From a plasmid, in sequence record NZ_CP096708.1: a stretch of DNA of 64,000 nt; one strand, given 5' to 3'. The notes under the pieces are model-generated. The model was given only the letters and a program-made list of their open reading frames with translations, was not told where the DNA came from and searched no databases. A program made the translations under genes and the position numbers. Within the stretch, counting starts at the first letter, position 1; each line of letters starts with the position of its first letter. Positions 3,326 through 61,878 of this stretch are shown piece by piece.

Positions 3326-3755
3326 TGAAATTCATAATCTCCTAGCTAAGTCGGATAGTGAAATTTCGAATCTAGCTAAAAAACCTGTATTGCATACTGA
3401 ATTTAAAAGATTTCAAAAACAGCTAGAAATGATACTGTTATATTTCCATGTTCTACCTGAATCAATTCAATGGAATTTTGAAAAAGGTATTATGTTTCCT
3501 GAATTTAATGGCGAAATCATGATTCATAGTTCTGGATATGGCTATGGTGATGCTGGCTATTTCTTTGCTCTTGTAGATAAATTTCAGTTAGCAATGTTTA
3601 TCAATCTATATTTTTGGCAGACCAGCAGAGATCATTATAACGAGCTGTATTTGGATGAATTACATAATTTATGTTGTTCTGTCGTTGATTATCTCCAAGA
3701 TTTTATCAAGCAAAATAATATTGATTTAACAAGTTGTATCATAACTGATCATTAG
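3318..3755 (+). CDS. Hypothetical protein
   Basis: A 145-aa ORF overlapping the previous ORF by 8 bp, which suggests translational coupling. Confidence 0.4.
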   Translation: MNNEIHNLLAKSDSEISNLAKKPVLHTEFKRFQKQLEMILLYFHVLPESIQWNFEKGIMFPEFNGEIMIHSSGYGYGDAGYFFALVDKFQLAMFINLYFWQTSRDHYNELYLDELHNLCCSVVDYLQDFIKQNNIDLTSCIITDH

Positions 3756-3944
3756 GGCGTTCCCTTCGGGACAGGCTTGTTGGCTTCGCTCGAACTCAAA
3801 CCTAAAACGTTGGTCACAGTGTTTAAAATCTAGTTTCATGCATAGCATGAACCTGATTTTAATACACCGCAGAACCAACGTTTTTTTACGCTTTGATTTC
3901 GCCCCTTCGGGCAACATCCCTAACGCCAATATCGAATACCTATT
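3755..3944. repeat. Repeat element A, copy 1: structured element of about 190 bp
   Basis: About 97% identical to 6832-7018. It has two CCCTTCGGG (UUCG-loop) mini-hairpins at its ends and a long imperfect central hairpin: AAAACGTTGGT ... ACCAACGTTTT, an inner TTAAAATC/GATTTTAA stem, and an apical CATGCATAGCATG palindrome. Confidence 0.8.
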
Positions 3945-4062
3945 GCTAAATCTGTTCTGACTAGGATCACTGCTGTACTCTCTATTCGTGCTTAAAACGC
4001 AAATGAGGCCCTTCTGGACGCATTCTATGTGGGATCCCGTATTCTATCCATTCCATGCAGAG

Positions 4063-4252
4063 CAGCTGCCATAGATAGATGCATCTATGTAATCAGGAAC
4101 TAGGGCTTTGTAAGAGTGGCCATCATAGATAAAAACGTCTATGGCCGTGGCAAACTTAGCTTCAGTATAGATAAATATGTCTATGCTCGATTTACCTGGA
4201 AACATAGTCAAGTCTATCTATGCGCTTATGCTTTCTAGTGCGGATCCGCAAC
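4063..4252 (+). repeat. Repeat element B, copy 1: four 18-bp inverted-repeat operator-like sites plus a terminal palindrome
   Basis: Sites of the form ATAGAT-N6-RTCTAT lie at 4071-4088, 4125-4142, 4167-4184 and 4204-4221. The block ends with TGCGGATCCGCAAC. It is nearly identical to 45994-46183 and 61501-61700. Confidence 0.8.
4239..4252. repeat. Palindrome family copy (TGCGGATCCGCAAC)
   Basis: At the end of repeat B copy 1. Confidence 0.9.
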
Positions 4253-4442
4253 CTGGAGTCGCAACTCTGCGAGATTGCTCTGTAAAGGCCGTGTAGTGCC
4301 AAATAAAGGCAGTTGCGTTGCTGCGGTCAGCTCGACTTAATCACAGATTAAGTCGGCTTCGCTTGCAACCTGCAACGGTAATCAAGGAGGGAAGATACTT
4401 GAATTTCACCAGTTCGCAACGTAGACACGTTGCTCTGTTTAT
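4253..4442 (+). repeat. Repeat element C, copy 1: possible small RNA unit
   Basis: Contains a 10-bp-stem hairpin CGACTTAATC-ACA-GATTAAGTCG, an AAGGAGGG Shine-Dalgarno-like motif, and a terminal hairpin GCAACGT-AGAC-ACGTTGC followed by a T-rich tract. Near-identical copies lie at 7067-7247 and 61701-61878. A diverged inverted copy lies at 45779-45906. Confidence 0.75.
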
Positions 4443-4520
4443 TATGGTGAAATAGCCTTAAAGCAAAATACATGACCCTAGCATAAGCTAGGGGTTTTGT
4501 TATTTTCCAATCTTAGTATC

Positions 4521-4775
4521 CTATACTTTTCCAAGTACATTGGATGCTATCTTTTCTAGTAAGGCGCTATGTTGATCAGAAATATCTTCGATATACATTT
4601 TATATTCATTAAGATCAATGACATTAGCAAGACCCAAACCAGTCACTAACCCTTTTGCATAATGCATTGTTTCATTCAGTTGACGCTGTTGATTAAATTT
4701 TGAGTCTAATGATAAAGCATCTTCCATGTTTTTTATGGAACTCTCAATTTGATTAATTATGAAATCTTTATACAT
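4521..4775 (-). CDS. Hypothetical protein (84 aa)
   Basis: A minus-strand ORF between repeat blocks with no recognisable motif. Confidence 0.3.
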   Translation of the reverse strand: MYKDFIINQIESSIKNMEDALSLDSKFNQQRQLNETMHYAKGLVTGLGLANVIDLNEYKMYIEDISDQHSALLEKIASNVLGKV

Positions 4776-4880
4776 GTTGCTGGATCCTGCACTTTAATTA
4801 ATATGCTATCAAAACCATATAATTATTTTACCACTAATTTAAATAAAATAACAATTAATTTACTTATAATTTTAAAAATA

Positions 4881-4948
4881 GGTTATAATATTTTCATGGA
4901 ATCGGATAGGCTGATTCCTATTAGAGCCGTGAGGCTTAAGGTGAAGAA
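4881..4948 (+). promoter_or_regulatory. Conserved promoter-leader-RBS module (full form)
   Basis: -10 box TTATAAT at 4883-4889. Hairpin 1 GGAATC-GGATAGGCT-GATTCC at 4898-4918. Hairpin 2 AGCC-GTGA-GGCT at 4925-4936. Shine-Dalgarno TAAGGTG at 4937-4943. ATG at 4949. Confidence 0.7.
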
Positions 4949-5392
4949 ATGAAAAATGATTTAGTTTTAAGTTATACCCTTTCTAATGGTGAAACTCATT
5001 TTTATGGCTATTTTATACATCGCAATGATGGTTCGCTTACATCTGGTTTCAATCAAACACCAGAGGAAGTTATTGAAGGGCTTAAACAACGTTATGGCGA
5101 GCGATTAGTCTCAACATCACTAGATGATGAAATTGAATATTTCAAAAAGGAGTTAGAGTTTTTAATTCCAAAGCAAATTGACGAAGAAGAATATAAAAGT
5201 AAATTCAATATATTACCTCCTGCAAAAATGTATAAGAGTGAGTCGGTAGAAGCATTCATGTGTACAGAGCCGTTAGCTATCAATCTGTATACCCATTTCG
5301 TTAATTTTCCTAAGCATAAAAAGGCTTTCCAGATCGTAGCGTTTGGAAATACGCCAATAACAGACGTTATCAAACAAGCAGAACATTTTTGA
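4949..5392 (+). CDS. Hypothetical protein (147 aa)
   Basis: The ORF sits directly behind a conserved leader module. Confidence 0.55.
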   Translation: MKNDLVLSYTLSNGETHFYGYFIHRNDGSLTSGFNQTPEEVIEGLKQRYGERLVSTSLDDEIEYFKKELEFLIPKQIDEEEYKSKFNILPPAKMYKSESVEAFMCTEPLAINLYTHFVNFPKHKKAFQIVAFGNTPITDVIKQAEHF

Positions 5393-5399
5393 TTTTCAT

Positions 5400-5454
5400 G
5401 GGGTAGAAATACCCCAATTTTAATTAATGAGCTGAAAAGCTTAAGGTGAAATTT
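5400..5454 (+). promoter_or_regulatory. Conserved leader-RBS module (variant)
   Basis: Hairpin GGGGTA-GAAA-TACCCC at 5400-5415. Hairpin 2 AGCT-GAAA-AGCT at 5430-5441. Shine-Dalgarno AAGGTG at 5443-5448. ATG at 5455. Confidence 0.65.
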
Positions 5455-6507
5455 ATGAAAAATATTACTGATTCAATTATTCAAAAACTAGGTCTAATTA
5501 CGTTTGAAGAGTTAGAAAAAGGCGATTTAGAAATATTTACTAACTTTGATACGTGTAAGGTAATTATCAAGGAAATTAAAAAAAATTGGAGTGAAGAAAA
5601 AGTATTTAAAATTTTGTTCGATGCTCTTAACGGCGACTTTATCTATTGTAACTCACAACAAGAATTACAAGCATTTATTAAGTACTTCAAGACTACTAAT
5701 AAACAATCGAATAAAGCTGAGCAACATTTCTTTGTACAGCCAACTAAACCCTACATGGTTGATCCCAAAAAACGCTATTTCATTGCCAATCTAGCAGTTC
5801 CCAATCTTCAAATTGAAAACTTAAAGGATGTTGATAATTTAACGAGTCGAGAAGTGGAATTTATAAATAAAGTTAAAGATGGTTTTGCAAATCCTGACAT
5901 TGACAAGTCTTTCCTAAACTTTTTAGAGGACTATAAAAAAATAGTTGCAGCAGAGTACCAGAGGAAAACAAACCAAAATAAAAAAGCAATGGATGAAATT
6001 GAATGGTTCATTGGCAATGGCTTTTTTATTCCTGAGCAAATTCTCAAGTACGAAGATAAAAACAAAATCCTCGATATCATTGTGTACTGCAATATTGCAG
6101 CTTTGAATTGGTTGTTGATCCCAAGTAACTTGTCTAAATATGAAAATATTCATCAAAACGACTTGTTAGCTTTAACCAAATATTTGTACCTGATGCAAAC
6201 AATATTGGCAGAAACTGAAATCACAAAATTAAGAAGTGGCGATGTAGAGGAATATTGTTTTAGGAAAAAAGGATATTATTTTTTAGATGAATTAAGTAGT
6301 GAAGAGATTGATCATTATTGTGAGGGAGAAGATTATGAAGTCTGGATTGTAAAATCTAAAGATAATGAAATCGAACCTGAAACCGCAGAAAAAGCCTATG
6401 ATGCATATGGAAATAGTTACGCATACGACTTAAAAGAACTAAAGGATACTTTGCAAAAATTTATATCCTTAAATGAAGTGCAGTTTTTACTTTACAAAAA
6501 GATTTAA
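5455..6507 (+). CDS. Hypothetical protein (about 350 aa)
   Basis: A long ORF. Start taken as the ATG at 5455 behind the Shine-Dalgarno; the track uses a GTG at 5446. Confidence 0.55.
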   Translation: MKNITDSIIQKLGLITFEELEKGDLEIFTNFDTCKVIIKEIKKNWSEEKVFKILFDALNGDFIYCNSQQELQAFIKYFKTTNKQSNKAEQHFFVQPTKPYMVDPKKRYFIANLAVPNLQIENLKDVDNLTSREVEFINKVKDGFANPDIDKSFLNFLEDYKKIVAAEYQRKTNQNKKAMDEIEWFIGNGFFIPEQILKYEDKNKILDIIVYCNIAALNWLLIPSNLSKYENIHQNDLLALTKYLYLMQTILAETEITKLRSGDVEEYCFRKKGYYFLDELSSEEIDHYCEGEDYEVWIVKSKDNEIEPETAEKAYDAYGNSYAYDLKELKDTLQKFISLNEVQFLLYKKI

Positions 6508-6568
6508 GACGCATAAAGGTCACATCATTTGATTGGTGTGACCACAATTATTTCAGGGTAGAGCACGA

Positions 6569-6766
6569 ATGAAAAATGAATATTCTGATTCAGAACTAGA
6601 AAAACTGTGGTGTGAATTAAGCAAAATAGCTATTGCGGTAAATGAAAATTTTATTGAACAAGACTTCATATTTTTTGAAGCAGGTACAGACATAATTGAA
6701 ATTTGGATTTGGTTCGATCAGTTACATTCAAAAGGGGTTAAATGGCTGCAAGATAATATTGATTAG
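6569..6766 (+). CDS. Hypothetical small acidic protein (65 aa)
   Basis: A short ORF followed by a palindrome plus T-run terminator. Confidence 0.35.
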   Translation: MKNEYSDSELEKLWCELSKIAIAVNENFIEQDFIFFEAGTDIIEIWIWFDQLHSKGVKWLQDNID

Positions 6767-6804
6767 CAAGATCTAGTTGCGGATCCGCAACTATTTTTTA
6801 AATT

Positions 6805-6828
6805 AATATTTTTTTCTTTATCTTTCTT
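6805..6828 (+). terminator. Intrinsic terminator formed by palindrome copy GTTGCGGATCCGCAAC plus T-run
   Basis: A perfect 16-bp palindrome at 6805-6820 followed by TATTTTTT. Confidence 0.5.
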
Positions 6829-6831
6829 TAT

Positions 6832-7018
6832 GGGCGTTCCCTTCGGGACAGGCTTGTTGGCTTCGCTCGAACTCAAACCTAAAACGTTGGTCACAGTGTT
6901 TAAAATCTAGTTTCATGCATGGCATGAACCTGATTTTAATACACCGCAAAACCAACGTTTTTTACGCTTTGATTTCGCCCCTTCGGGCAACATCCCTAAC
7001 GCTATAATCAAATACCTG
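6832..7018. repeat. Repeat element A, copy 2
   Basis: Near-identical to 3755-3944. Confidence 0.8.
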
Positions 7019-7066
7019 GTACGAATTTTATGCCTATTTGAAGCATAATTTTATATCAATAATATT

Positions 7067-7247
7067 GAGTCGCAACTCTGCGAGATTGCTCTGTAAAGGG
7101 CGTGTAGTGCCAAATAAAGGCAGTTGCGTTGCTGCGGTCAGCTCGACTTAATCACAGATTAAGTCGGCTTCGCTTGCAACCTGCAACGGTAATCAAGGAG
7201 GGAAGATACTTGAATTTCATCAGTTCGCAACGTAGACACGTTGCTCT
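7067..7247 (+). repeat. Repeat element C, copy 2
   Basis: Near-identical to 4259-4439. Here it is not preceded by block B. Confidence 0.75.
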
Positions 7248-7356
7248 AGATTTTATGTCAAAAATTCACAAATATAAGTCTCTGTTTTTACTGGTTTTAT
7301 TTATTTATAAAATGCCTATAATATTGTTTTTTATGCTTTTTTTATTTATCTGATGT

Positions 7357-7425
7357 GATATAATTAGAATTAAGAAATTGGATAGGCTAATTTCTTAATA
7401 GAGCTGAAAAGCTTAAGGTGAAAAT
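7357..7425 (+). promoter_or_regulatory. Conserved promoter-leader-RBS module (full form)
   Basis: -10 box GATATAAT at 7357-7364. Hairpin 1 GAAATT-GGATAGGCT-AATTTC at 7374-7394, with both arms changed in a compensatory way relative to other copies. Hairpin 2 AGCT-GAAA-AGCT at 7402-7413. Shine-Dalgarno AAGGTG. ATG at 7426. Confidence 0.7.
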
Positions 7426-7737
7426 ATGAATACTTATACAAAAATTGCAATCAATTACTTCAAAAATTTGCTATCCGTTAGCGAACAAAATAACGGATTG
7501 AAATATTCAGAATCAATGCAAAACCCGAAGCACATAGCCTGTAATGAAACTACTTTTTTCATAACTCAAATTGAAAATTCAATTGTAATTATCGACTGTG
7601 ATCATGAAAGTTTTTTGCCGTATTCGATTGATGCCTGTTTAGATTTTACGTCTAACAGCGTTAAAGAAGCAGCAGAGAAAGCGATTGATTATTATTGTCA
7701 AATTCGTGATCACTATTTTGAATTAATTAATCAATAA
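7426..7737 (+). CDS. Hypothetical protein (103 aa)
   Basis: The ORF sits behind a leader module. Confidence 0.5.
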   Translation: MNTYTKIAINYFKNLLSVSEQNNGLKYSESMQNPKHIACNETTFFITQIENSIVIIDCDHESFLPYSIDACLDFTSNSVKEAAEKAIDYYCQIRDHYFELINQ

Positions 7738-8342: not shown

Positions 8343-8414
8343 GTTATAATTTAATCAGGAAATCGGATAGGCTGATTTCTTATTTATGAGCTGAAAAGCT
8401 TAAGGAGTTTTAAA
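8343..8414 (+). promoter_or_regulatory. Conserved promoter-leader-RBS module (full form)
   Basis: -10 box TTATAAT at 8344-8350. Hairpin 1 GAAATC-GGATAGGCT-GATTTC at 8359-8379. Hairpin 2 AGCT-GAAA-AGCT at 8389-8400. AAGGAG at 8402-8407. ATG at 8415. Confidence 0.7.
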
Positions 8415-8768: not shown

Positions 8769-9143
8769 TTGCTTAAATATTTTTACAACTTCACTAATTT
8801 TAGATTTCCAAACTTTCGGGCTAACATCTAACAAGCCATTTTTTTCAAGAATAGAAACTACTGAATCAACAGTTTTTTTACGTGCTTCTTTGATTTCCTC
8901 TTCTAATGCCTGCTCCAATAATTCGATTTCTTTAACCAAACTTTGTTTTTTATTTAGCAGTTTTTGAGCTTTAGGCGAAAGGTAACTATGTTCTATTTTT
9001 TCAGCTTCATCCTGTTTATTGCTGGTCTTATTTTCTTCAATATTAGAAGTAGCATTGTCAGCAGATTGACTTACAGAATTTTGTGAATCCTGTGGATTTG
9101 TAGCAGTGACTGTATTCATATTTTTTCCATCAAGTTGATACAA
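8766..9143 (-). CDS. Hypothetical coiled-coil protein (125 aa)
   Basis: A Lys/Glu-rich, heptad-like ORF. It is the first gene of the leading region and lies on the opposite strand. Confidence 0.4.
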   Translation of the reverse strand: MYQLDGKNMNTVTATNPQDSQNSVSQSADNATSNIEENKTSNKQDEAEKIEHSYLSPKAQKLLNKKQSLVKEIELLEQALEEEIKEARKKTVDSVVSILEKNGLLDVSPKVWKSKISEVVKIFKQ

Positions 9144-9239
9144 AAATCATTATAAGCATAATCCAAAATTCTATTTTTTGTATAGAGCTAAAATTCTTGC
9201 ACCGTAGCAACATACAATTTTTAAAATTTCGAATATTAA

Positions 9240-9300
9240 TAAATGGGCGGGACAACCCGCAAAAAAAAGCGTCACACACCACGCACCTATCGGTGCTTCG
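9240..9300 (-). promoter_or_regulatory. Candidate oriT: relaxase-binding hairpin plus nic region, with the transferred strand inferred to be the minus strand
   Basis: Read on the minus strand, the sequence is GCACCGATAGGTGC, a 5-bp-stem hairpin (plus-strand coordinates 9282-9295), followed by GTGGTGTGTGAC. This closely parallels the R388 MOBF oriT IR2-nic sequence GCACCGAAAGGTGCGTATTGTCT/AT as recalled. AT-rich repeats TATACGTAAAACGTATA and ATAGCGT-type motifs lie at 9350-9575. The site is immediately upstream of the RHH accessory, traD and traI genes. Confidence 0.5.
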
Positions 9301-9696
9301 GCTCAAGCCTATGCTGTACAAGGGTTATAGGCTAAAAAAGAGTAAAAGATCTGTGTATACGTAAAACGTATAATTAAATAGCTATGTATATGAAACGTAG
9401 GAGATTATAGCGTATACAAACTATGGTTTAGATGTTTACCAAAATAACTAAAAACTATAAGTAACTGATTGATAATAATAATTTAATCATGTAAACAGAT
9501 AATGCAACTCTAAATATTATTTTTATGATCTTAAGTATTTGTAAAATAAAGAGAATATAGCGTTTACGCATATCTTCTTATGAAGCTCACATTTTTTTCT
9601 CAGTTTAATCTTTGCTAATATTAAAAAATCAATCAAAGTGATACAAAAAATATTATTTATTTTTTGTTTTTTATCTCAAAAAAAGAGGTCAAATTT

Positions 9697-12330: not shown

Positions 12331-15300
12331 ATGATAGGTGTCAATAATGTTTCTGAGACAGGACAAGCGTTAAAATATTATCAACTTGATAACTATTATA
12401 CGAATAGTCAGCAGGCTTTAGATCAGACTGAATGGTATGGTCAAGGAGCGCAGATACTTGGTATTGAAGGAGAGCAAGTTGATTCTAAAACGTTTGCAGA
12501 TCTTCTAAATGGAAAGATTGATGATCAGCAGTTAGGCAGAGTTAGAGTCGATGATCAAGGTAATAAATACATAGAGCACAGAGCAGCTATGGATATTACT
12601 TTTAGTGCACCGAAGTCAGTATCTATTCTTGCTGAAGTTTATCAAAATCAGGATGTTTTAGAAGCACATCAAAATGCAGTCAAAGAAACATTATCGACTA
12701 TTGAGGAGAATTTTGTTCAGACAAGATTAAGTGAAGATGGACAAAAACAAAAAGTTGATAGTGATAATTTAATAGTTGCTCTCTTTAATCATAATACTAG
12801 TCGTGCATTGGATCCTCAAACTCATACCCATGCTGTAGTTATGAATGCAACATTTAATGATAAAGATACTTGGTCAAGTATAAGTAATGAAGCAATTTAT
12901 GCAAATCAGTCAGTAATTGGTTCAATTTACAATGCTAACTTGGCTAATAATTTAAAGGAATTAGGTCTAGATCTTGAAGTAAAAGATAACAAAGGTAATT
13001 TTGAAATTGCGGGATTTTCTCCTGAAGTATTAGAAGAATTTTCGCAACGTAGAAAACAAATTATTGATAGCCTCAGTGATCGTGGTATTGATATTGGAGA
13101 CGCACCAGCCAGCTTACGTGAACAGGCAGCACTAAAAACGAGAGATCGAAAGAAAGGGTTTGATGAGCAAGAGCTTAGAGAAAGCTGGAAATCTAGAGCT
13201 AGTGAACTTGGGATTTCTGATAAATTTATTGACGACATTAGATTACAAATTAGAGAAAATAAGTTAATTGCGGATCCGCAACTAGGAAAAGAAACTCAAC
13301 CTGAAGAAGTTCAGGATCCACAGAAAATACCACAGACGAGAGATAATCAACTGGATCAACCTGAAGTAGCTCAAGATCCACAGAAAGTACCACAGACGAG
13401 AGATAATCAACTGGATCAACCTGAAGTAGCTCAAGATCCACAGAAAGTACCACAGATGAGAGATAATCAACTGGATCAGCCTGAAGTAGCTCAAGATCCA
13501 CAGAAAGTACTACAGACGAGAGATAATCAACTGGATCAGCCTAAATCAACCCAAGAACCAGAAAATCAAAAACCTAATAGAGTACGTCCACCTAAAAGAG
13601 ATAAACCACCAATTGTGATTTCCGAAAAAACCAAGGAAGCAGTTTTTTATTCTATTGGGCATCACACAGAACGTGAAATGATGATTAATGAAAATAAGAT
13701 CATAGATACAGCAATGAAAGTTGCTGTAGGTGAAACAGACTTTTTGCAAGTTAAAGCTGAACTGGATAGGTTGAAGAAAGCCAATATTATTATTCAGGTA
13801 GGAAATAGGATAACAACAAAAAAACTAGCTACTGATGAAGTATGGTCACTTGAACACATAAAATCAGAGAAAGGGAGTATGAGTCCAATACTCAATGAGA
13901 AAGCTATTAAGGACAGAATTAACCAGGAAGAAAAACTTAGAGGGAAGCAGTACACAGCAGGACAAAGAGATAGTATTGAGACGATTTTAACTTCTGACAG
14001 TAGATATGTTGCAGTAGATGGATTAGCAGGTACGGGTAAAACTACTCTCTTACATACTATTAATAAAATTGCGAGTGAAAACGGATTTATAGTAAGAGGA
14101 ATGGCAGCTACTGGTGTTGCAGCAAAGAACTTGGAAATGGAGACAGGAATAGAGTCTAAAACAATTGCCATGTTCCAATTTAAAGCTAATGATCTACTTA
14201 AACAGGCAATGGAGCAAGGCGTTGAAAATCGCAAACCTGAAATCTGGATTATAGATGAATCAAGTTTTGTTGGTCAGAATAGCTTTAAGGAAATTTTGAG
14301 CTTATCAAAACAACTAAATACAAGAGTTGTATTTTTAGGCGATAAAAACCAGTTACAAGCAATTAATGCAGGTAAACCTTTTGAATTAGCTCAAAATACA
14401 AATTCTATAGACTTGGCAAAAATGCATAATATTTTGCGTCAAAAGAATCAGGAATTAAAAGATGTTGTAACGTTGGTAGTAGCTAAAAATGATAAAGGAG
14501 AAATTGATCTTAGTAAAAATGCTGAAGCATTTGACTTATTGGATTCGCAAAAAAGAATACATGAATTTGGAAGTGTTCAATCTGGTAAAAATAAAGGGGT
14601 AAAAAGTCAGCTAAATGATAATGAAGATATACATCTTGTTCACAAAGAATTAATTAAAAGCTATATGTCAAATGATGCTAAAGGACGACAAGAAAGTTTA
14701 ATTATTACTCCATTTAACTCGGATCGTGTTGTTTTGAATGCATTGGTAAGAGAGGAAATGAGGAAGGCAAATGAACTTCATGGGCCTGATAGTGAATTTT
14801 CCATTCTTATCAATACAAATTACACAGAACCTCAAAGAAGTTTACAAGCAAACTATGAGCGAGGAATGGTAGTTAGATTTCAAAAAAACTATGCAGATAA
14901 AGATGGTCAAAATAAAATCTTTAAAGGCCAATATTTAAAAGTTTTGATGAAAAATAAAGACGGTACTCTAACATTGGAAGATAAAGACAAGAATCAGTTT
15001 CAATGGAATCCAAAGAAAAAGAGTAATAGTGTAGAAGTGTATAAAGAAGAAAATCGCAAGGTAGCAATTGGAGATACAGTCAGATTTACCAGAACTAAAG
15101 AAGAAGAAGATATAAAAAATGGTGAACGTTATAAGATTAAAGGCTTAACCGAAGATCATGTGAAAATTGAAGATCAAGCGGGAAACGAAAAGCTAATAGA
15201 TAAAGGTGATTTTAAACACTGGGATTATGGTTACAGTAATACAGTATATTCATCACAAGGGTTAACAAAAGGCAATGTATTCTTATTGCTCAACAGTCGA

Positions 15301-17249: not shown

Positions 17250-17291
17250 AGGTACTTTATTCGTGAGAAGTAACTAGGTATTCAGGCTATC

Positions 17292-17373
17292 TAAGAGTGG
17301 CCATCATAGATAAAAACGTCTATGGCCGTGGCAAACTTAGCTTCAGTATAGATAAATATGTCTATGCTCGATT
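17292..17373 (+). repeat. Repeat element B, partial copy (sites 2 and 3 only)
   Basis: Matches 4094-4188 and includes ATAGATAAAAACGTCTAT and ATAGATAAATATGTCTAT. Confidence 0.7.
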
Positions 17374-17929
17374 ATTTGGTTAAATAGTTGCCAATTTTAT
17401 CAATATATTTATTTGACAATTCTTTATTAAACTTAGAAGTTTTTTCTTTAACTTGTGATTCAGGAAGTTGGGCTAATACTCGATCTGTAGTAATGATTGG
17501 CGATTTATAGTTAAAGCGACCCTTTGTACAATACATAATTTGACTTGGATAAACTTTAAATCCTAGAACCTGTTTTGTTGTTCTATCAAAAATAGGAGTT
17601 CCTTTAATAATAGAACCGTTATCGTTTATTGTTAGTATGGCAATTTTACCATTCCCATCTTTTTTAACAGTAACATTGTCAAAGTAACAATCATTTTTAG
17701 AGCCTAAAGAATTTGTATAATTAATAATATCAACATCAGTTAGGCTTTTATTCAATTGTCTTCCTTTATATATCATGAATGATAAGACTAGAATTACAAT
17801 CAAAAGCAAAGGAATTGCTTGGAAGATAGTTTTTAATTCAAGTACTTGAGGGTGATTGTTGTGATTATTAAAACTCATCTTTTGTTTAATACCTTTATTT
17901 AAAATGAAATGCATATGGTTGTAAATCAA
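17372..17929 (-). CDS. Hypothetical membrane-anchored, probably periplasmic protein
   Basis: A single N-terminal hydrophobic helix. It is the last gene of the minus-strand accessory cluster. Confidence 0.4.
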   Translation of the reverse strand: MIYNHMHFILNKGIKQKMSFNNHNNHPQVLELKTIFQAIPLLLIVILVLSFMIYKGRQLNKSLTDVDIINYTNSLGSKNDCYFDNVTVKKDGNGKIAILTINDNGSIIKGTPIFDRTTKQVLGFKVYPSQIMYCTKGRFNYKSPIITTDRVLAQLPESQVKEKTSKFNKELSNKYIDKIGNYLTK

Positions 17930-18512
17930 TAGGATTCCATTGCTTTAGTTTAATATCTGATATTATTGATTCTTCATTTCCAAACAAAAACCAAAATTCA
18001 TCATTAAGATAAATATCTCCATATGAATCGTATTCATCTATTTCAAGGCTTACTGTATACAAATTACTATCTTGGCCTTGATTTGAAATTCTTAAGACAA
18101 CTTGAGCATACGCATTCTTAAGTAGGGTAATATGATCAGGATCATCCCAATGGTTTGTATCACCTACCTCTATATTTAAAACGTCGAAAAGGTTTAGAGC
18201 CAATATTTTACGAGTGATATCTCTCATTTTCTGTACCTTAATTTGTAAATTTACCTTATTACTATCTTGAACTGTTACACAAGAAGCGTTCTCAAATACC
18301 CACATAGATAAATCGGTATTCGGAAAAGCCTGATTAGTTAATTTACGGAAAGCTATATCAAAAACTTCATTCTGTTCTGCGTTTCTTTTGGCCCAAACTT
18401 TAATATTTCCATTGTATAGATTCGGGATCCAAGGTATTGAACTTACTTTAACATCCCACTCTACAAGATCAGTTGAATTAATAATTTTTAAATCATCATC
18501 CTTTAATGTCAT
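17895..18512 (-). CDS. Hypothetical protein (205 aa)
   Basis: Overlaps both the methyltransferase gene and the next gene, which suggests coupled translation. Confidence 0.4.
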   Translation of the reverse strand: MTLKDDDLKIINSTDLVEWDVKVSSIPWIPNLYNGNIKVWAKRNAEQNEVFDIAFRKLTNQAFPNTDLSMWVFENASCVTVQDSNKVNLQIKVQKMRDITRKILALNLFDVLNIEVGDTNHWDDPDHITLLKNAYAQVVLRISNQGQDSNLYTVSLEIDEYDSYGDIYLNDEFWFLFGNEESIISDIKLKQWNPIDLQPYAFHFK

Positions 18513-19218
18513 TTAAGTAATCCTCAGCATTAGAAACAGAAAGTATGGAAGCAAGAATAGCTTGACGTTCAGCGCATGGAAGATCTTTGAAGTTATTTGC
18601 CCACCTTTCAGCTTTACGTTTAATTCTTTGTCGGTCAGTAAAATCTTTACCTGCATAAGTATGATAATGAATGGTATTTGGAAAAAAATTACACCAAACT
18701 GTCTCAGTCCGAACACCACCCCTTGTCATAGCCTGGAAATCTATAGACCACCAGTCCGCAATAAGTTCATCGTAAATTCTATTTCTATAACCAGATAAAA
18801 GAACAAAACAATTTTCAGGCAATTTCTTTAGGAGTTGAATTAGTTTCAGATGGTCTTCATCATTAAATTCATATTTGTAGCGCTTTTTACTTGATCTGGT
18901 TTCGAGTAAGTAAGGTGGATCACAATATAAAACTGTTCGGCCAGATTGGGAAAAATCAAACTCATTTAAGAAATTTAAAGAATCAGTATGATAAAGCTCA
19001 ACATCATTTTCGGGTGAAATAAAAGATTCAATACAATCAATATTTAAATCTATTCCAATTTGTCTAGATGACTTAGCTTTTTTAGATAAAATTGATCCAG
19101 TGCCTAAGAATAGTTCTATGTAGGTATCATGTGGTGGAATTAAGTTAATAATAGCTTGATAAACACCACTTCCTGATTTTGCACCTAAGTAGTTATTTAA
19201 AATAGAATTCATCTTCAT
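18496..19218 (-). CDS. Dam-like (D12 class) N6-adenine DNA methyltransferase
   Basis: NYLGAK, FLGTGS (motif I) and YCDPPY (motif IV), in the same order as in E. coli Dam. Confidence 0.8.
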   Translation of the reverse strand: MKMNSILNNYLGAKSGSGVYQAIINLIPPHDTYIELFLGTGSILSKKAKSSRQIGIDLNIDCIESFISPENDVELYHTDSLNFLNEFDFSQSGRTVLYCDPPYLLETRSSKKRYKYEFNDEDHLKLIQLLKKLPENCFVLLSGYRNRIYDELIADWWSIDFQAMTRGGVRTETVWCNFFPNTIHYHTYAGKDFTDRQRIKRKAERWANNFKDLPCAERQAILASILSVSNAEDYLNDIKG

Positions 19219-21588: not shown

Positions 21589-22165
21589 TGAACAGGTCAG
21601 TGAGGATTAAGTCTCTTTTTTTGTTAGACTCATTAATTGACTCTTGTTCTTTTAATAGACTTAATAATTTTATAACATTAAGATTTATAAAATCGAAGCC
21701 TGTAATAATTCCATCTCTATTTTTTAGAATTTCTTTTACTTTATTTTTAAATTCTGGAATAGTGTTAGAAACATCGCTAATCATTTGATAACTATCTGAA
21801 TCAATTTCATCAAAACTATCAATTGAACATAAACTTATCAAATTATTTTTATTAAGTAAATTATCATTAACTGAAAACATTTTTCTTGTTGAGAAAGCTG
21901 ATATTATAAAAAATGTTAGTGATGTTAGAAATATCATTTTCCCATAATTGAAAACAGGTACTTCTGGAATTAACAAATCCATTAATGATATAAATGCTAT
22001 AACAAAAAAAATAATCATTAAAATTAATAATAACCTTATTATTATGGTATAGCGTTCAGACTTACGGTAAATCGGAATATATTGTTTCTGTGTAAGAGGT
22101 TTATATTCTTTGATTTCCTTAATACACAAATCAATAACTTCTTGTGTCTTGACAATTTCATTCAT
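21560..22165 (-). CDS. Membrane protein, paralog A
   Basis: Start taken as the ATG at 22163-22165 (MNEIVKTQ...), which is preceded by a minus-strand leader module. The track start at 22255 would read through the palindrome. Confidence 0.5.
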   Translation of the reverse strand: MNEIVKTQEVIDLCIKEIKEYKPLTQKQYIPIYRKSERYTIIIRLLLILMIIFFVIAFISLMDLLIPEVPVFNYGKMIFLTSLTFFIISAFSTRKMFSVNDNLLNKNNLISLCSIDSFDEIDSDSYQMISDVSNTIPEFKNKVKEILKNRDGIITGFDFINLNVIKLLSLLKEQESINESNKKRDLILTDLFNDNGDKNND

Positions 22166-22190
22166 ATATACACCATAAGCCTTTCGGCTC
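22166..22190 (-). promoter_or_regulatory. Conserved leader-RBS module (hairpin 2 only), minus strand
   Basis: The reverse complement reads AGCC-GAAA-GGCT TATGGTG tatat ATG. Confidence 0.55.
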
Positions 22191-25949: not shown

Positions 25950-26533
25950 GATTTATGGATGCTGAAAGTGGTAATAAAACTATCAATTCAATGCAGGCAA
26001 GAAATAGATCACAAACAGTTGTGATCTTTTCTTTAGTGGGTGTGATTATTGGACTAATAATCGTTTTGGGTATAGCACTTACTAACAATAAAACAATCCT
26101 ACAGTTCCCAGGTAAAGATTCTCAATCATTTATTGTAGGAAATACAACCGCAAACCAAGAATACTTTGTTAATGCTGCTGATTACTTCGTAAACAAGCTA
26201 TACAACGTTACACCTATCAATGCTCGTAAAAACTTTGACTCAATTCTAGTAGCTACTGATCAAAGAACATACCCACAAATTAAAAAAATGCTTAACGAAA
26301 CTGAATCAAGAATTGTTAAGCAGGGCATTACAAGTGTGTGGTCGTCAAGTGGGGCTTTTACCTATCAGGAATCTGAAAAAACTGTAACGGTCGAGGGGAT
26401 GTTAAAGACCTACCTTGCTGATCGCCTAGTTTCTGAAGAACCTAAAAAACTTAACATTAAATTCTCAATGAATAAGGGAACTATTGCTCTTTATTCAATG
26501 GGTGAGGTGAGAGAAAATAATGGTACTCAATAA
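25946..26533 (+). CDS. traE: TraE-like
   Basis: Single N-terminal transmembrane segment plus a periplasmic domain. Gene order and size match. Confidence 0.6.
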   Translation: MRFMDAESGNKTINSMQARNRSQTVVIFSLVGVIIGLIIVLGIALTNNKTILQFPGKDSQSFIVGNTTANQEYFVNAADYFVNKLYNVTPINARKNFDSILVATDQRTYPQIKKMLNETESRIVKQGITSVWSSSGAFTYQESEKTVTVEGMLKTYLADRLVSEEPKKLNIKFSMNKGTIALYSMGEVRENNGTQ

Positions 26534-27239
26534 ATTAGCTGTCTTTACAGCAAGCTTAATTATTTCAGCTTCTGCCTATTGTACTCAACATATTACTAAA
26601 GCTGATAAACAATCCGTATCCGTTGCAGTTTCAAATAAAGATCTCAATGTTTTATATGTTGATGGTCGGAAAATGGTTACAGCTACACCAAGCAATTCAA
26701 ATGCTCTTGAATATCAAAAAGACAAAAATCAAGGTGCGCTCTATTTCAAAATTAACCCTGCATTTCAAAACACAACGATACCAGTTTTCGTCACTGATGA
26801 TTATGGAACTCGATACAAAATCGAGCTTCAACCTAAAAATATGCCTGGTGAAGATGTTGTGCTTGTACCACCAGCAGAAAGCGAAACGAGTGTAGGGAAA
26901 CGAAATCAGTCATATCAACAACAAATCAAAGAGTTGATTTATACAATGGGAGATGATGCGGATAGCCCACGGGATGAGTTAGCAATAGACGGGATTTCAA
27001 GAAGTTATATTGGTGCAGATATACCACTATGGAAAGAAGCAAGTCTTAAGCTTTTAAGAAGATATGATGCTGATAGTGGCATGTATGGGGAACTATACCA
27101 AATTAAAAATATCTCTTATAAGCCTTTAAACATGCTTGAGCAGGAGTTTTATAGAAAAGGCGTAGCAGCAGTTTCAGTGGAAAACCTTACTTTGCAACCA
27201 GGAGCTACAACATTCTTATATGTAGTTCGAGAGCAGTAG
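26520..27239 (+). CDS. traK: TraK-like (secretin-like periplasmic protein)
   Basis: Signal peptide. Order and size match. Confidence 0.6.
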   Translation: MVLNKLAVFTASLIISASAYCTQHITKADKQSVSVAVSNKDLNVLYVDGRKMVTATPSNSNALEYQKDKNQGALYFKINPAFQNTTIPVFVTDDYGTRYKIELQPKNMPGEDVVLVPPAESETSVGKRNQSYQQQIKELIYTMGDDADSPRDELAIDGISRSYIGADIPLWKEASLKLLRRYDADSGMYGELYQIKNISYKPLNMLEQEFYRKGVAAVSVENLTLQPGATTFLYVVREQ

Positions 27240-40971: not shown

Positions 40972-43900
40972 ATGGATTTTGTGATTGAAACGTACTGGAA
41001 TGTTGAGTCCACATATTTAACTTTAAATTTTATAGCGGCTTTCATGGGTGGCAGTGGATGGTTAGGTCTACTTAAATTTGTATTTTTGTGCGCCTTGATG
41101 ACCGCAATGCTTAAGTTTGCCTATGACCGAGATATTGGTGATTTACTTAAATGGTTTGCACAAGCATATTTATTAGTTGTTGTTTTTATGGCCCCTGTAA
41201 GCTCAGTGGCAGTAGTAGATAAGTTGAATCAAGAACCTCCAAAAGTGGTAGGTAATGTTCCCTGGTTGATAGCAGGCACATCTTGGGCAATAAACACTGT
41301 TACTGGATGGTTGGCAGTAGAGTATGAAAAGCTTGCAAATGTTCCTGGAAGTTTAAGACTAACTTCAACAGGGGATATGGGATTCGGTCAAGCTTTAATT
41401 AGAAATACAAATCAAATCACGATTACAAATCCATATTTACGTGCAGACTTGATGCAATATATTAAGGAGTGTGCACTTTATGATATGCAAGATGGAGTTT
41501 TAAGTGTTGATGATTTAATGAATAAAACTAATTCATGGTCACTTATGTTCTCTAAAACTAATCCAGCTCGGTTTGTAACTCTTGGTACAGTTAAGGGTGA
41601 TCCGAAAACTTATTCCTGTGTTGATGCTGCAAGTATTTTAGATACCAATGTAACTTCAGGCGTAGAAGCAGCTATGCGTTACTATGGAAAAAATGCATTC
41701 AATAATTTTAATCCTAATGTTGCATACAATATGTATGTTGGGGCATTAGGTCAAAGCTATTCATGGATCTTAGGTGCTAATCAAAATGCATCTGATGCGG
41801 TTAAACAAGCTATGTTTAACAATATTATGCGTTCAGCAAATTCAGAGTTACCAGCTTTAATAAATGATCCAACACGCATACAAGAAATTATTGCTTCAGG
41901 TGGAGCTGCAATGGCTGCTGAACAATCAAAGGGCAGTGCAAATGTAGTTTCTAAATTAGCTTTTGAAGCAATTCCAACTATTCGAAATTGGTTAGAATCT
42001 GTTTTATACAGCTTATTTCCTATATGTGTTTTATGGCTAGTAATAGCACGGCCAAATAATACACTGAATATCCTATCTGCCTATTTAAGTAGCTTTATCG
42101 GTCTAGGTCTTATACCAGTATTTTATACAAGCCTTAATCACCTTTCGATGGTTTATCTAAAAAAACAAGCTGAAGCTATGGAGCTTGCTCAAGGTGTTCC
42201 TTTTTCTAAGTTATCAGTACTAGACAGCACTGTGATTGATGAGCAAGCTATGTTGGGATTCTTTGTCCTAATTATTTTGCTGTTAGCTGCATGGGCAGCA
42301 AGGGCATTTAATGGCGGGATATTGAGTGTTGCACCACGCTTATTATCTTCTATGACCTCAGCAGGTTCTTCAGTTGGTGGAAGCTTAGCGATGGGTAATA
42401 CATCGCTAGGGGAAACTGCTTTAGACACTAAAACAGTAAATAACACGTCAATGAATAAGTATGATGGAAACTTAAGCATGAGCCGTGGTTTGTCAACTTA
42501 TACAAATGAATCAGGAACGTCACACACTATAACGCCTAACGGATTAATGAATACTCAAAAACTTGAGGACGTTGTACCGCATTCTTTGCATACAGGACAA
42601 TCAATCAATAGATCCAATGAGCAACGTTATAGTCAATCTACAGATTCAAGTTTCACACGATCAACAGATCAAAATGTTGTAAGTGGCTCTACAACTTCAG
42701 ATAGTTTCTCTAGAACACAGAATTATGGTACTGAGCAAACAACAGGAGTTTCAAATTCTGTTAATAGAGGTACAAACGTTTCTAATCAATATGATAGTGG
42801 TATTAATGAAAATAATACTAACTCGACAGGCCATACTTTAGAGGATGGTCGTACTGTTTATACTGCTTTAAGTACTGGTATTTCAGGACATGGAGGAATC
42901 GGAGCTGCTGGTGGCGTTGGTGGTGATAACGGTCAACGTGTAGCAGGATCGCCTACTAATCCAGGTCAAACTATGCCTACAGGTAATAATGCCAATGCAT
43001 CAAATGGTGCTTCAGGAGGAACTGGAGGAAAAGGTGGTAAAGGTGGTAAAGCAGGCTTCAATGTTGGTGCGGATGTTAATGCTCAAGGTCAAATGGGTGT
43101 TAATTACAATGCAAACCAATCTGATTCAAAATCTAGTACAAATGCTGTTGATCAATACCGTAGCATTTCAAGAGGTATTGGTACACATGCTGGAACTGAC
43201 TATTCAAGAACAGATACTGGATCTGTAAACTCTTCAACAGGTCATGGCTTTGAAACAAGTGCATCAAGATTTACCAATACATCACATACTGATGGTCAAA
43301 ATGCATCTATTTCTGACCGTAATGGATATGATCAAAGTACTGCCTACTCATCTTCTCATCAACTTGAGCAAGGCTATAATCTTGCTGCAAGCCCTGAATT
43401 CAAACGCGATGTTGCGAAGCATTTTGAAATGGATCAACTTCAATTCAGTAATTTACCTGCCGATGAGCAAATCCGCTTAATGAAGCAGTATAGAGATGAA
43501 GAAGTTAATGCAATTCAAACCACTCCAAGTAGCTATGAGAATGGACAGCCGATTGCTTTCAATCTTCCAAAAGACTTTAATCTAAATCAAAGTAAAGTCG
43601 GCTCTACTAAGGAAATTGATAGTGATTTTCAGAAAAATGCAAATCGTATCGGTACAAATATAGAGCGTGTGAATGCTGATACAAAAGCACCTGAGAGTTT
43701 ATCAAGAACGAATAGTACGCTAGAGGATGTAAACGGTGAAATGAATCGACTCAACAGTAGTAAAGCTGAAGAGACGAGAGAAGCAAGTAATAAAAAGGCC
43801 GAGCTTAAAGACAGAGTTGATGCACGTGCACGTGAAGATGTAAAAGATGCTGCTTATAATTTAGCTAGTTCATTAAGCCCTAAACAAATTTGGAAAGATA

Positions 43901-45558: not shown

Positions 45559-45778
45559 TTAAAAAATTAAAAGCTAAGTGAGCAAGAAAATATAATAATA
45601 CGAATGGTATATAAATTGTGAAATTTAAATCATATTTATATTGGCAAAATATACCATTACAAGCAGCTCCTGAAGACATTGGCCAAAAAAACGGTCGATA
45701 AATTAAGTTGATGATTTATATAGATTCAGTTGTTTTGATTAGATAAATTGAATTGGCAAAATATTACGCAAAACGAAT

Positions 45779-45906
45779 AAGAGCAACGTGTCTACGTTGC
45801 GAACTGATGAAATTCGAGCATACCCATCTTTGATTACCGTTGCAGGTTGCAAGTGAAGCCGGCTTAATCTGTGATTAAGTCGAGCTGACCGCAGCAACGC
45901 AACTGC
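45779..45906 (-). repeat. Repeat element C, partial diverged inverted copy
   Basis: Reverse complement of about 4310-4439 with substitutions. The AAGGAGGG motif is lost. Confidence 0.7.
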
Positions 45907-45993
45907 TTTACTTGATCCTCGATGTAATCAACTAAGTATTCATGCAGATTTACGACATGTACTGTGCTTGCCATAATCTACATTTATCCAATG

Positions 45994-46183
45994 CAGCTGC
46001 CATAGATAGATGCATCTATGTAATCAGGAACTAGGGCTTTGTAAGAGTGGCCATCATAGATAAAAACGTCTATGGCCGTTGCAAACTTAGCTTCAGTATA
46101 GATAAATATGTCTATGCTCGATTTACCTGGAAACATAGTCAAGTCTATCTATGCGCTTATGCTTTCTAGTGCGGATCCGCAAC
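45994..46183 (+). repeat. Repeat element B, copy 3
   Basis: Near-identical to 4063-4252. Confidence 0.8.
46170..46183. repeat. Palindrome family copy (end of repeat B copy 3)
   Basis: TGCGGATCCGCAAC. Confidence 0.9.
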
Positions 46184-46306: not shown

Positions 46307-47596
46307 ATGTCAAATAAAATCATATTTTTGATAGATATCAACAATGCTTATTGCTCCTTTGAAAGAGTATTTAATCCTAAACTCAATGATCGTGCTGTAA
46401 TTGTTACTAGCAATGGAGACGGTTGCATAGTAGCTCGTTCAGCAGAAGCAAAGGCGCTTAATATTCCGATGGGTGCACCACTATTTAAAGTCATTGATAT
46501 TGTGAAAAGGCACAATGTAATTGTTTTATCAAGCAATTATGCTTTATATGGAGAGATGAGTAGAAGGTTTCATAACATATTACGAGATTACGTAACTTAT
46601 GAGGAACATGAAGAATATTCAATTGATGAAGCCTGGATTGATTTAACTTCTTATGTTCAAAATTATGACTTAAATAATATAGCAAAAGAAATACTTCAGC
46701 GTTTAAAACAGTGGCTTGGAGTGCCCTGCTGCATAGGAATTGGGAAAAGTAAGACAGAAGCAAAAATTTCAAATCACATCGCAAAAAAAAACCCACAATT
46801 CAAAGGTATATGTAATCTAGTTGATATGGATCCCTGTGATATAGAAGAACTATATTCTGGTATAGATGTTTCTGAAGTATGGGGAGTGGGCCGTAAATAC
46901 TCAAAGCGGTTAAATGAAATAGGTATATTTACCGTGTTTGATCTTGCATGTGCTAATCCATTTGAGATGAAAAATAAATTTGGGGTAGTTATGCAAAGAA
47001 CTATACTCGAACTTCAAGGTCAAGCTTGCATTCCTCTAGAACCAAAACCCCCAGCAAAGAAGCAAATAATTTCATCACGCTCATTTGGTCAAAAAATAAA
47101 TAACTTGCAGGATCTTAAGGAGGCAGCAACTCTCTTTACGCAAAATGCAGTAAGAAGACTCAGAGCTGATGAACAACTATGCGGTGAAATCACTGGTTTT
47201 GTTCAATCTAACCCTTTTAGTAAAACTGAAAAATATTATAGTAAAGCAGTGGTATATAGGTTTCCAGAACCAACAGATTGTGTTTTGGATATAGTTAAAA
47301 TTTCGACTGCTTTAATGAATCAAGCATATATGCCAAATATAAATTTTAAAAAATGTGGGGTTGTATTATCAAATTTAGAACCAAAGAATAAACATATTTA
47401 TGATTTACTGACAGATATGCAAAATATTGAAAAGAAAGAAAAATTCATGAAATCATATGAGCTGATCCAAAGTAAATTCGGAAAGAAAAAATTAGCGGTC
47501 GGTGCTTGTAATTTACCAGGAAGAAATTGGTCTATGAAACAAGAACGTCTTAGTAATAACCCTTTTACTTGGAGTGGGTTGTTAAAAGTAAACTAA
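46307..47596 (+). CDS. umuC: UmuC-like Y-family (translesion) DNA polymerase subunit
   Basis: IVTSNGDGCIVARSAEAKALNIPMG parallels the E. coli UmuC N-terminus. No umuD ORF is present upstream. Confidence 0.8.
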   Translation: MSNKIIFLIDINNAYCSFERVFNPKLNDRAVIVTSNGDGCIVARSAEAKALNIPMGAPLFKVIDIVKRHNVIVLSSNYALYGEMSRRFHNILRDYVTYEEHEEYSIDEAWIDLTSYVQNYDLNNIAKEILQRLKQWLGVPCCIGIGKSKTEAKISNHIAKKNPQFKGICNLVDMDPCDIEELYSGIDVSEVWGVGRKYSKRLNEIGIFTVFDLACANPFEMKNKFGVVMQRTILELQGQACIPLEPKPPAKKQIISSRSFGQKINNLQDLKEAATLFTQNAVRRLRADEQLCGEITGFVQSNPFSKTEKYYSKAVVYRFPEPTDCVLDIVKISTALMNQAYMPNINFKKCGVVLSNLEPKNKHIYDLLTDMQNIEKKEKFMKSYELIQSKFGKKKLAVGACNLPGRNWSMKQERLSNNPFTWSGLLKVN

Positions 47597-61500: not shown

Positions 61501-61700
61501 CAGCTGCCATAGATAGATGCATCTATGTAATCAGGAACTAGGGCTTTGTAAGAGTGGCCATCATAGATAAAAACGTCTATGGCCGTGGCAAACTTAGCTT
61601 CAGTATAGATAAATATGTCTATGCTCGATTTACCTGGAAACATAGTCAAGTCTATCTATGCGCTTATGCTTTCTAGTGCGGATCCGCAACCTGGAGTCGC
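61501..61700 (+). repeat. Repeat element B, copy 4
   Basis: Identical to 4063-4252. Confidence 0.8.
61687..61700. repeat. Palindrome family copy (end of repeat B copy 4)
   Basis: TGCGGATCCGCAAC. Confidence 0.9.
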
Positions 61701-61878
61701 AACTCTGCGAGATTGCTCTGTAAAGGCCGTGTAGTGCCAAATAAAGGCAGTTGCGTTGCTGCGGTCAGCTCGACTTAATCACAGATTAAGTCGGCTTCGC
61801 TTGCAACCTGCAACGGTAATCAAGGAGGGAAGATACTTGAATTTCATCAGTTCGCAACGTAGACACGTTGCTCTGTTT
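61701..61878 (+). repeat. Repeat element C, copy 4
   Basis: Identical to 4253-4439 apart from one substitution. Confidence 0.75.

Follow-up and report, generated by a model that had tools for sequence, protein, structure and literature searches.

The DNA analysed here (the window, 64 kb of sequence record NZ_CP096708.1) belongs to a ~70-kb conjugative plasmid of Acinetobacter baumannii with a MOBF relaxase, an F-type mating-pair system and a replicon of rep_cluster_650, and is identical to positions 6288–70287 of p5767 (NZ_CP096703.1). At 4063–4442 it carries a composite unit in which an operator array, block B, is followed by a folded element, block C, and both recur elsewhere in the window together with a long hairpin, element A. 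Between rep (48.6 kb) and 9.1 kb, a stretch that spans the record start, nearly all genes have plus-strand orientation and head toward a 577-bp non-coding region (9120–9696), just upstream of the genes for the type IV coupling protein (T4CP) and MobF. Inspection of this region revealed a candidate origin of transfer (oriT) hairpin and nic region on the minus strand, GCACCGATAGGTGCGTGGTGTGTGACGC (9266–9298), with the hairpin GCACC-GATA-GGTGC followed by GTGGTGTGT, which we take to resemble closely the IR2-nic sequence of R388. Because of this resemblance the minus strand is treated below as the transferred strand and the plus-strand genes left of oriT as the leading region, a polarity shared with the F plasmid, where leading and tra genes run one way. 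No primase gene is present among the annotated genes of the plasmid.

Block B occurs in three full copies on the plus strand, 99–100% identical and defined by motif count and repeat comparison: B1 at 4063–4252, B2 at 45994–46183, between the minus-strand C copy C4 and Abi gene on one side and a plus-strand umuC-like gene on the other, and B3 at 61501–61690. The initial annotation had proposed a repeated four-operator block of the form ATAGAT-N6-RTCTAT, and this pattern indeed has 14 matches at 11 distinct sites, against 0.06 expected from shuffles. Motif matches in B1 place operator 1, ATAGATAGATGCATCTAT (which also reads as ATAGATGCATCTAT), at 4071–4088, operator 2, ATAGATAAAAACGTCTAT, at 4125–4142 and operator 3, ATAGATAAATATGTCTAT, at 4167–4184; operator 4 (4204–4221) is the degenerate ATAGTCAAGTCTATCTAT, placed by alignment with relatives that carry ATAGATAAATCTATCTAT there, and centre-to-centre spacings are 54, 42 and 37 bp. 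A partial B with operators 2 and 3 only, 92% identical and previously unlisted, lies at 17270–17373 (plus strand).

Block C is a 183-nt conserved folded element, delimited by nhmmer, a covariance model and covariation at 4256–4437 (C1, plus strand). Repeat comparison and the covariance model place two further direct copies at 7067–7248 (C2, without B and the nearest to oriT) and 61694–61875 (C3), the three being 97–100% identical, and the covariance model a fourth, C4, at 45779–45958 on the minus strand, immediately left of B2. The inverted copy by B2 had been described as a diverged remnant; it is inverted and its 5′ third is diverged, with the Shine–Dalgarno (SD)-like motif AAAGATGG, but it is no remnant, being full length and scoring 162.8 bits against the family covariance model. 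The 10-bp hairpin, the AAGGAGGG motif and the terminator-like hairpin reported for C are all in place. The first is the top of a longer hairpin, H3 (4312–4376), in which 17 of 25 pairs have changed on both sides, the apex AATCACAGATT is invariant and GCTTCGC, which reads GCGAAGC on the minus strand, stands in an internal loop; the second sits within 4377–4391, a conserved unpaired SD-like motif GGTAATCAAGGAGGG whose GGTAATCA is invariant in 28 sequences; and the third, with a T-run, is found at 4416–4433 and 7227–7244, the former being hairpin H4, shown by the alignment to have apex GTAGACAC and an invariant CAGTTC on its 5′ side. Hairpin H1 (4261–4278) has changed on both sides at 5 of 7 pairs. 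The T-run after H4 is confined to this plasmid lineage and is absent or weak in the copies of pNDM-BJ01, RepAci6 and pHZE23-1-2 plasmids.

The fold was assessed in an alignment of 28 distinct copies, 13 from plasmids and the others from metagenome contigs. RNAalifold, with refinement of the structure by hand, gave five helices, whose positions are paired in 95.6% of cells, compared to 80.6% in shuffles and 35–51% in slid controls. Twenty-three base pairs change on both sides, a number reached in none of 500 shuffles, and invariance is found in the apex AATCACAGATT, the unpaired GGTAATCA(R)GGA(R)GG, the CAGTTC before the last hairpin and the apex GTAGACAC. Outside one 3-bp segment wobble pairs are nearly absent (7 G.T and 14 A.C among ~960 cells), and the strand count of G.T versus A.C in covarying helices, 7 versus 14, becomes 7 versus 6 without one misaligned subgroup. 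The covariance model also recovers a distant family, C′, in rep_cluster_386 plasmids, which keeps the motifs and has its last stem fully replaced by compensatory changes. No start codon, open reading frame (ORF) or frame after the SD-like motif is conserved between lineages, and neither is a promoter upstream of C, where the 120 nt are unrelated between lineages and the best promoter matches are 8/12 or none. Across the whole window Rfam 15 gave no match at gathering thresholds, and at E values up to 10 only chance-level matches outside C. Given the lack of a conserved ORF, start, frame or promoter, the lineage-specific T-run and the absence of an Rfam match, we regard C as a structured non-coding element and not as a peptide gene or a generic terminator-ended small RNA (sRNA) gene. 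Viral contigs scanned for the H4 pattern gave no match; a scan of genome contigs with GGTAATCA-N22-30-CAGTTCGC was too unspecific, and its loci (L010–L129) were discarded as chance matches. Readings of C as an attC site, XerCD site, retron RNA, 6S-like RNA, CRISPR-repeat mimic or relaxase nic site were also rejected, either because the motifs do not fit or because the carriers have three relaxase types.

Members of the C family occur at 1040 places in 362 PLSDB plasmid records, of which 355 are conjugative, and no annotation lies under any B or C match in the plasmid records. Plasmids of the pNDM-BJ01 type, with two copies at 80% identity, and RepAci6 plasmids, with three at 72%, are among the carriers, as are plasmids with NDM-1 and OXA-23. 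Their backbones have unrelated transfer systems: MOBF/MPF_F in this plasmid, RepAci6 plasmid pAb-G7-2 and pAS51-3; MOBQ/MPF_T in pNDM-BJ01; and MOBP/MPF_T in pHZE23-1-2. These five backbones represent three relaxase types, and each has one or more C copies at the head of an array of genes running toward oriT. In the window C1–C3 and the two copies of element A lie among the plus-strand genes that run to the oriT region (9.1–9.7 kb), upstream of the T4CP and MobF genes, and the positions of the three direct copies are syntenic with those of the three copies in pAb-G7-2. Within a plasmid C copies share at least 97% identity, between plasmids 72–80%; that syntenic copies should be so alike within a plasmid and only 72% identical between plasmids points to concerted evolution. 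C is co-oriented with the relaxase gene in about 8 of 13 cases and points away from rep in about 9 of 11, the two copies in pHZE23-1-2-type plasmids diverging from the rep region. The gene that follows C nearly always has its own TATAAT −10 promoter between C and the start codon, and hence C is not the 5′ untranslated region (5′-UTR) of that gene.

Two further observations concern the surroundings of C. The sigma-70 promoters with a TATAAT −10 sit 45–65 nt upstream of the genes following C (window ~7350–7360 and, on the minus strand, 45590–45620; pNDM-BJ01, locus L005, ~42990–43020; L008 ~26170–26200; L173 ~505–535 and 5620–5650), and in pAS51-3 their spacers hold a palindrome, TATAACCTAGGTTATA, that is likely the operator of another repressor. 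In pNDM-BJ01 two near-identical inverted C copies, at 42758–42940 (plus) and 46532–46714 (minus), flank 3.6 kb of small leading-region genes beside traD and oriT, and could form a 183-bp stem on single-stranded DNA (ssDNA).

Element A, a conserved long hairpin located by its exact end motifs, occurs twice on the plus strand, upstream of B1–C1 at 3755–3926 and at 6832–7002, where the z score of the ssDNA fold is −6.4. In a seven-sequence alignment 13 of its 50 pairs are compensated. A lies 100–330 nt upstream of C in this plasmid, RepAci6 plasmids, a metagenome contig and pAS51-3, the last of which has A, a two-site B and C′ in succession, and so the order A–B–C is old. The 423/424-bp ‘repeat units’ of RepAci6 plasmids have been described without a function (Hamidian et al. 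2014, PMC3956371; also PMC6412058), and as published no structure or wider distribution was reported for them. They are homologous to the elements studied here: repeats 2 and 3 of pAb-G7-2 (~21752–22182 and ~26496–26921) are A plus C and its 229-bp repeat 1 is C, all syntenic with the copies in the window, from which they differ in lacking block B and in being only ~72% identical. Our search of the literature found no functional description of these repeats. Together A and C make up a structured element, conserved and specific to conjugative plasmids, that was known until now only through descriptions of its repeats.

What might such an element do? Our preferred reading, to which we give a probability of roughly 40%, is that C is a cis signal active as a single strand, akin to the single-strand initiation (ssi) and Frpo elements. 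From the fold, conservation, distribution and placement of C described above, we infer its activity on ssDNA and the kind of enzyme that would act on it. The B–C unit would then consist of two independent modules joined in this plasmid lineage: B, a regulatory block of four operators plus one site of a 16-copy palindrome family for a KorB-type ParB, and C, here one of four copies, which with its partner hairpin A would work as ssDNA. On entering the recipient, the transferred (minus) strand would fold into the leading-region A and C hairpins, at which host enzymes would start RNA synthesis; the RNA would prime synthesis of the complementary strand and might also serve as an early transcript that runs toward oriT. 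C copies beside rep in related plasmids could start DNA chains likewise in vegetative replication. Analogous roles are played by the Frpo and ssi elements of F and ColIb-P9, the complementary-strand origin of phage G4 and the single-strand origins (sso) of rolling-circle plasmids.

Several observations are consistent with this proposal. The near absence of wobble pairs fits DNA hairpins, or folding of both strands, better than RNA. When the window is folded as ssDNA in 300-nt pieces, the greatest stability on both strands is that of the A and C regions (−51 to −59 kcal/mol, versus a mean of −25 with a standard deviation of 6.5), and C is the window's most GC-rich 182-nt stretch (49% versus 34%), GC richness being also reported for the ssDNA promoters of F (PMC13478746). 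The minus strand of C has hairpin H4′, then GAA and an invariant CTG in all 28 aligned copies and in locus L009, most of them with GCGAAGC as well; the metagenome copies were retrieved with a pattern containing the hairpin-GAA-CTG motif, the 13 plasmid copies were not. Phage G4 has, at its origin of complementary-strand synthesis, a hairpin topped by GCGAAAGC, then CTA and, at the annotated primer start, CTG. CTG is the triplet at which the primase DnaG initiates, and unusual stability is a known property of d(GCGAAGC). That no primase gene is annotated on the plasmid also counts in favour.

The closest parallel is with the leading regions of other plasmids. The ssDNA promoter of F, Frpo, was reportedly described by Masai and Arai in 1997. 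Like Frpo, C is a leading-region element placed ahead of genes that have its orientation and are templated by the transferred strand; the same layout is found in the leading regions of pAb-G7-2, pAS51-3, pHZE23-1-2 and pNDM-BJ01, and F has the same polarity. Frpo1 and Frpo2 of F and the ssi repeats of IncI1 plasmids are, as A and C are, dispersed, near-identical, GC-rich non-coding hairpins of the leading region, co-oriented with gene arrays toward oriT (PMC9849209; PMC12672017); they have been proposed to give early transcripts and primers (PMC9849209; PMC12672017), and Frpo1 and Frpo2 are also recombination substrates (PMC9849209). The near confinement of the family to conjugative plasmids and its placement in leading regions parallel these repeats, and the analogy favours a signal on ssDNA. 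C shares no sequence similarity with Frpo, however, and covariance model R1 finds nothing in the F leading region. With the G4-type ssi, the minus strand of C has in common a hairpin, 3 nt, an invariant 5′-CTG-3′ and GCGAAGC, where G4 has the GCGAAAGC apex and CTA-CTG, but in C the GCGAAGC stands in the internal loop of another hairpin. C is thus not a member of the Frpo or G4-type families, whose defining features were looked for and not found in it. The CUP repeats of the leading region of the IncN plasmid pKM101 are regulatory blocks of several hundred bp upstream of several operons, with operators, and are likewise recombination substrates. They contain a strong promoter, whereas no conserved promoter was found in B or C.

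A number of findings weigh against C as an ssDNA signal. Scans of both strands for sigma-70 hexamers revealed no convincing, conserved −35/−10 pair in the stems of C and A: the best minus-strand case, TTGCAA-N17-CAAAAT by the apical loop, is 8/12 in most copies and shifts or is lost in shorter members, and mean scores at aligned positions reach at most 7.7 in C and 8.0 in A. The hairpins are much shorter and far weaker than Frpo (−40 kcal/mol for 226 nt versus −118 for 466 nt), and the best 300-nt windows, at −56 (minus) and −59 (plus) kcal/mol, do not reach the value below −75 kcal/mol per 300 nt at which ssDNA promoters were called in pESBL (PMC12672017). There are inverted copies in which the active strand would not be the transferred one (C4, one in pNDM-BJ01, two in pHZE23-1-2 and one in L009), and inverted copies are found outside leading regions. 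Two conserved G.T pairs (alignment columns 72–110 and 74–108) are on the sense strand, where the transferred strand has A.C. The likeness to G4 is partial as well, because the three G4 hairpins are all 5′ of the CTG but only H4′ is so in C, with H3′, H2′ and H1′ on its 3′ side, and because the distant C′ relatives in rep_cluster_386 plasmids are without the CTG.

The main alternative, somewhat unlikely in our view, is that C (and A) act as RNA: either as a structured cis element that lies between genes or in the 3′ part of leading-region transcripts, such as a processing or stability signal or an antitermination or ribosome-loading element, or as a lineage-specific sRNA of ~185–200 nt, possibly controlled by B and ended by H4 and its U-run. 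Covariation alone does not separate RNA from ssDNA. C is co-oriented with its nearest upstream gene in 30 of 41 cases, often starting 8–90 nt after the stop codon, as an element of a transcript might, but a few copies (L009, L150) are antisense to both neighbours. Its unpaired purine-rich SD-like motif and the conserved G.U pairs of the sense strand would suit RNA too, yet wobble pairs are almost absent from the 36 covarying or conserved pairs. This plasmid has weak promoter-like sequences just upstream of C (TTGAAG-16-TAATAT before C2 and TAGTCA-16-TATGCT within operator 4 of B) and a T-run after H4, whereas, as seen above, no such promoter is conserved across lineages and the U-run is missing from the pNDM-BJ01, RepAci6 and pHZE23-1-2 copies. 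Moreover, Rfam gave no match for C even at permissive thresholds, and the family is almost confined to conjugative plasmids, which also argues against RNA. As a general description, the earlier picture of C as a terminator-ended unit under the control of B is not supported, since T-run and promoter-like sequences are lineage-specific and C is present without B in >340 records.

A different possibility is that A, B and C are passive DNA, left behind by the exchange of modules, homogenised within a plasmid by gene conversion and of consequence only as recombination substrates. That they recombine is apparent from natural variants. Plasmid pABAY10001_1C (NZ_MK386682.1, 54,627 bp) begins at position 7248 of the window, ends in B3–C and is as long as the interval that separates the C copy at 7067 from that at 61694; from these end points and this length, it is the exact product of C–C recombination, and it is without the 15.7-kb segment carrying parAB, ISAba1 and B1–C1. 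Similarly, pACICU2 is without the 4.7 kb between RepAci6 repeats 2 and 3 (PMC3956371), and in pUSA15_1 the extra DNA adjoins repeat copy 1 (PMC6412058). The initial annotation had suspected recombination-prone junctions, and the end points of pABAY10001_1C in C copies and the pACICU2 deletion between homologous repeats bear this out; the repeats explain the observed plasmid variants as deletions between copies and are useful markers for plasmid comparison. The 97–100% identity within a plasmid versus 72–80% between plasmids would also be expected of passive repeats, as would oppositely oriented genes that often abut the 3′ end of C (a convergent gene does so in ~40% of cases). Neutral DNA, however, would not keep its pairing through compensatory changes, or invariant loops and unpaired motifs across five unrelated backbones, or operator palindromes while the spacers drift, and this covariation makes a purely passive repeat improbable.

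Block B was found in only 13 plasmid records, and B-like arrays of ~70% identity, present also without C, occur in MOBF plasmids of A. soli and A. seifertii (rep_cluster_386). In these arrays the palindromes are kept (consensus CATAGATAAAAAYRTCTATG) and the intervening spacers drift, a phylogenetic footprint by which we take the palindromes to be protein-binding sites. B would thus be an array of sites for a dimeric DNA-binding protein, as already proposed in the initial annotation, with palindromic operators of 18–20 bp and a plasmid-encoded binder. Scans with Pfam and NCBIfam revealed no DNA-binding domain in 20 neighbouring or small ORFs, and no gene for a small ribbon-helix-helix (RHH) or helix-turn-helix binder of the ParR/CopG type beside B. 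The neighbourhoods of the B copies have no gene in common, and the two convergent genes after B1–C1 and B3–C3 are unrelated to each other; the genes shared only among B-bearing plasmids are dam, an MmcB-like gene and two hypothetical genes. Comparison of B with the B-like arrays found neither a conserved promoter nor a conserved ORF, one ORF annotated over B in a single record not being kept, and a putative promoter, TAGTCA-16-TATGCT, was dropped as it is not kept in the arrays. B2 is directly upstream of a −10-like sequence recognised by eye (TATAAA/TAAAAT) and the umuC-like gene. In rep_cluster_386 plasmids a B-like array lies directly upstream of the dam methylase gene (L168, 19965–20169; L169, 6715–6921), and the partial B of the window sits at the distal end of the dam operon (17372–19212, minus strand).

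Every full B copy ends in AGTGCGGATCCGCAAC (4237–4252 in B1), a 14/16 variant of a dispersed 16-bp palindrome, GTTGCGGATCCGCAAC, that the window contains 16 times, against 0.00 expected, and in six of these cases within a gene. Their GCGGATCCGC cores start at 4240, 6779, 13270, 20096, 22198, 23831, 25042, 29794, 33659, 38856, 46171, 50329, 53401, 56373, 61678 and 63941, and one further copy lies just after parB (L170, 2161). There are 13 copies in pAb-G7-2 and none in the examined plasmids with other Par systems. The ParB of the plasmid carries a KorB domain (PF08535, 38.3 bits versus a cut-off of 22.3), and the palindromes are most likely, judged by sequence, the sites of this KorB-type ParB. 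Because of the KorB domain, B looks like a composite control block in which operators stand beside a KorB-type site, as in the kor regulon of IncP plasmids. Common to both systems are a ParB with a KorB domain, one palindrome dispersed 16–17 times in intergenic and coding DNA, and a second operator type beside the KorB-type site (in RK2, the KorB OB site with KorA/TrbA operators); the site sequences differ, and B is limited to its 13 records. Several intergenic GTTGCGGATCCGCAAC copies precede T-runs and could also serve as terminators.

Could B instead be a centromere or incompatibility determinant, of the ParR or omega kind, recognised by a partition adaptor with a second role in repressing neighbouring promoters? 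Arrays that act in both partition and repression are known in the omega sites of pSM19035 and in the dispersed centromere or operator sites of N15 and RK2, and the multiple arrays of closely spaced palindromes per plasmid would agree with such a role, as would the single B-like array ~1.3 kb downstream of parB in pAS51-3 and pAS566-3. We nevertheless consider it improbable, since GTTGCGGATCCGCAAC is a much better candidate site family for the plasmid's own KorB-like ParB, B is missing from pAb-G7-2 although that plasmid has a ParB and a nearly identical ParA, and no ParR/RHH gene was found beside B. Least credible is the earlier suggestion that C encodes a very short type I toxin-like peptide translated from AAGGAGGG, for although the window copies have a strong SD followed after 8 nt by TTG and an 18–20-codon frame, the start codon and frame differ between lineages (pNDM-BJ01 copies have no in-frame start, and frames and stops vary even among the three pAb-G7-2 copies), the frame crosses hairpin H4, whose changes are compensatory and not synonymous, and the predicted peptide is not hydrophobic.

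Some other features of the plasmid were noted in passing. Direct repeats TATAGCGT(A/T)TAC occur near the oriT candidate, at ~9408 and ~9556. Within mobF, five in-frame tandem 60-nt units (13296–13595) encode a repeat of 20 residues with a high content of Q, P, D and E, and the KorB-type palindrome at 13270 is just before them. Four different plus-strand genes of the leading region have in common a 5′-UTR motif, CGGATAGGCTGATTTC followed by GAGCTGAAAAGCTTAAGGTG (pattern count, 4 matches versus 0.08 expected; CGGATAGGCTGATTTC at 4903–4918, 7379–7394, 8364–8379 and 62569–62584), that is also upstream of two pAb-G7-2 genes. Terminator-like hairpins are enriched between the short plus-strand leading-region genes at 3700–7500 (12 versus 2.3 expected).

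Returning to C as a signal on ssDNA, a broader and still tentative picture, a little less probable than the reading of C itself, is that A and C are previously unrecognised, genus-specific ssDNA establishment signals common to unrelated backbones, with B and the KorB-type palindromes as a kor-like circuit over them. Read by Acinetobacter host enzymes, these signals would prime complementary-strand synthesis, drive early expression, or both.

OXA-23, aphA6 and NDM-1 are spread among Acinetobacter by plasmids that carry the C family, and C is the most conserved non-coding feature common to these otherwise unrelated backbones. The covariance model built here could be used to annotate C repeats, and the 16-copy palindrome with the KorB-type ParB suggests that these plasmids have a global regulatory circuit so far undescribed in them. 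If C is indeed the Acinetobacter counterpart of Frpo and ssi, it would reveal the means by which plasmids that have no primase gene convert the entering strand and express it, would help to explain their narrow host range, and would offer a common target for blocking their establishment.

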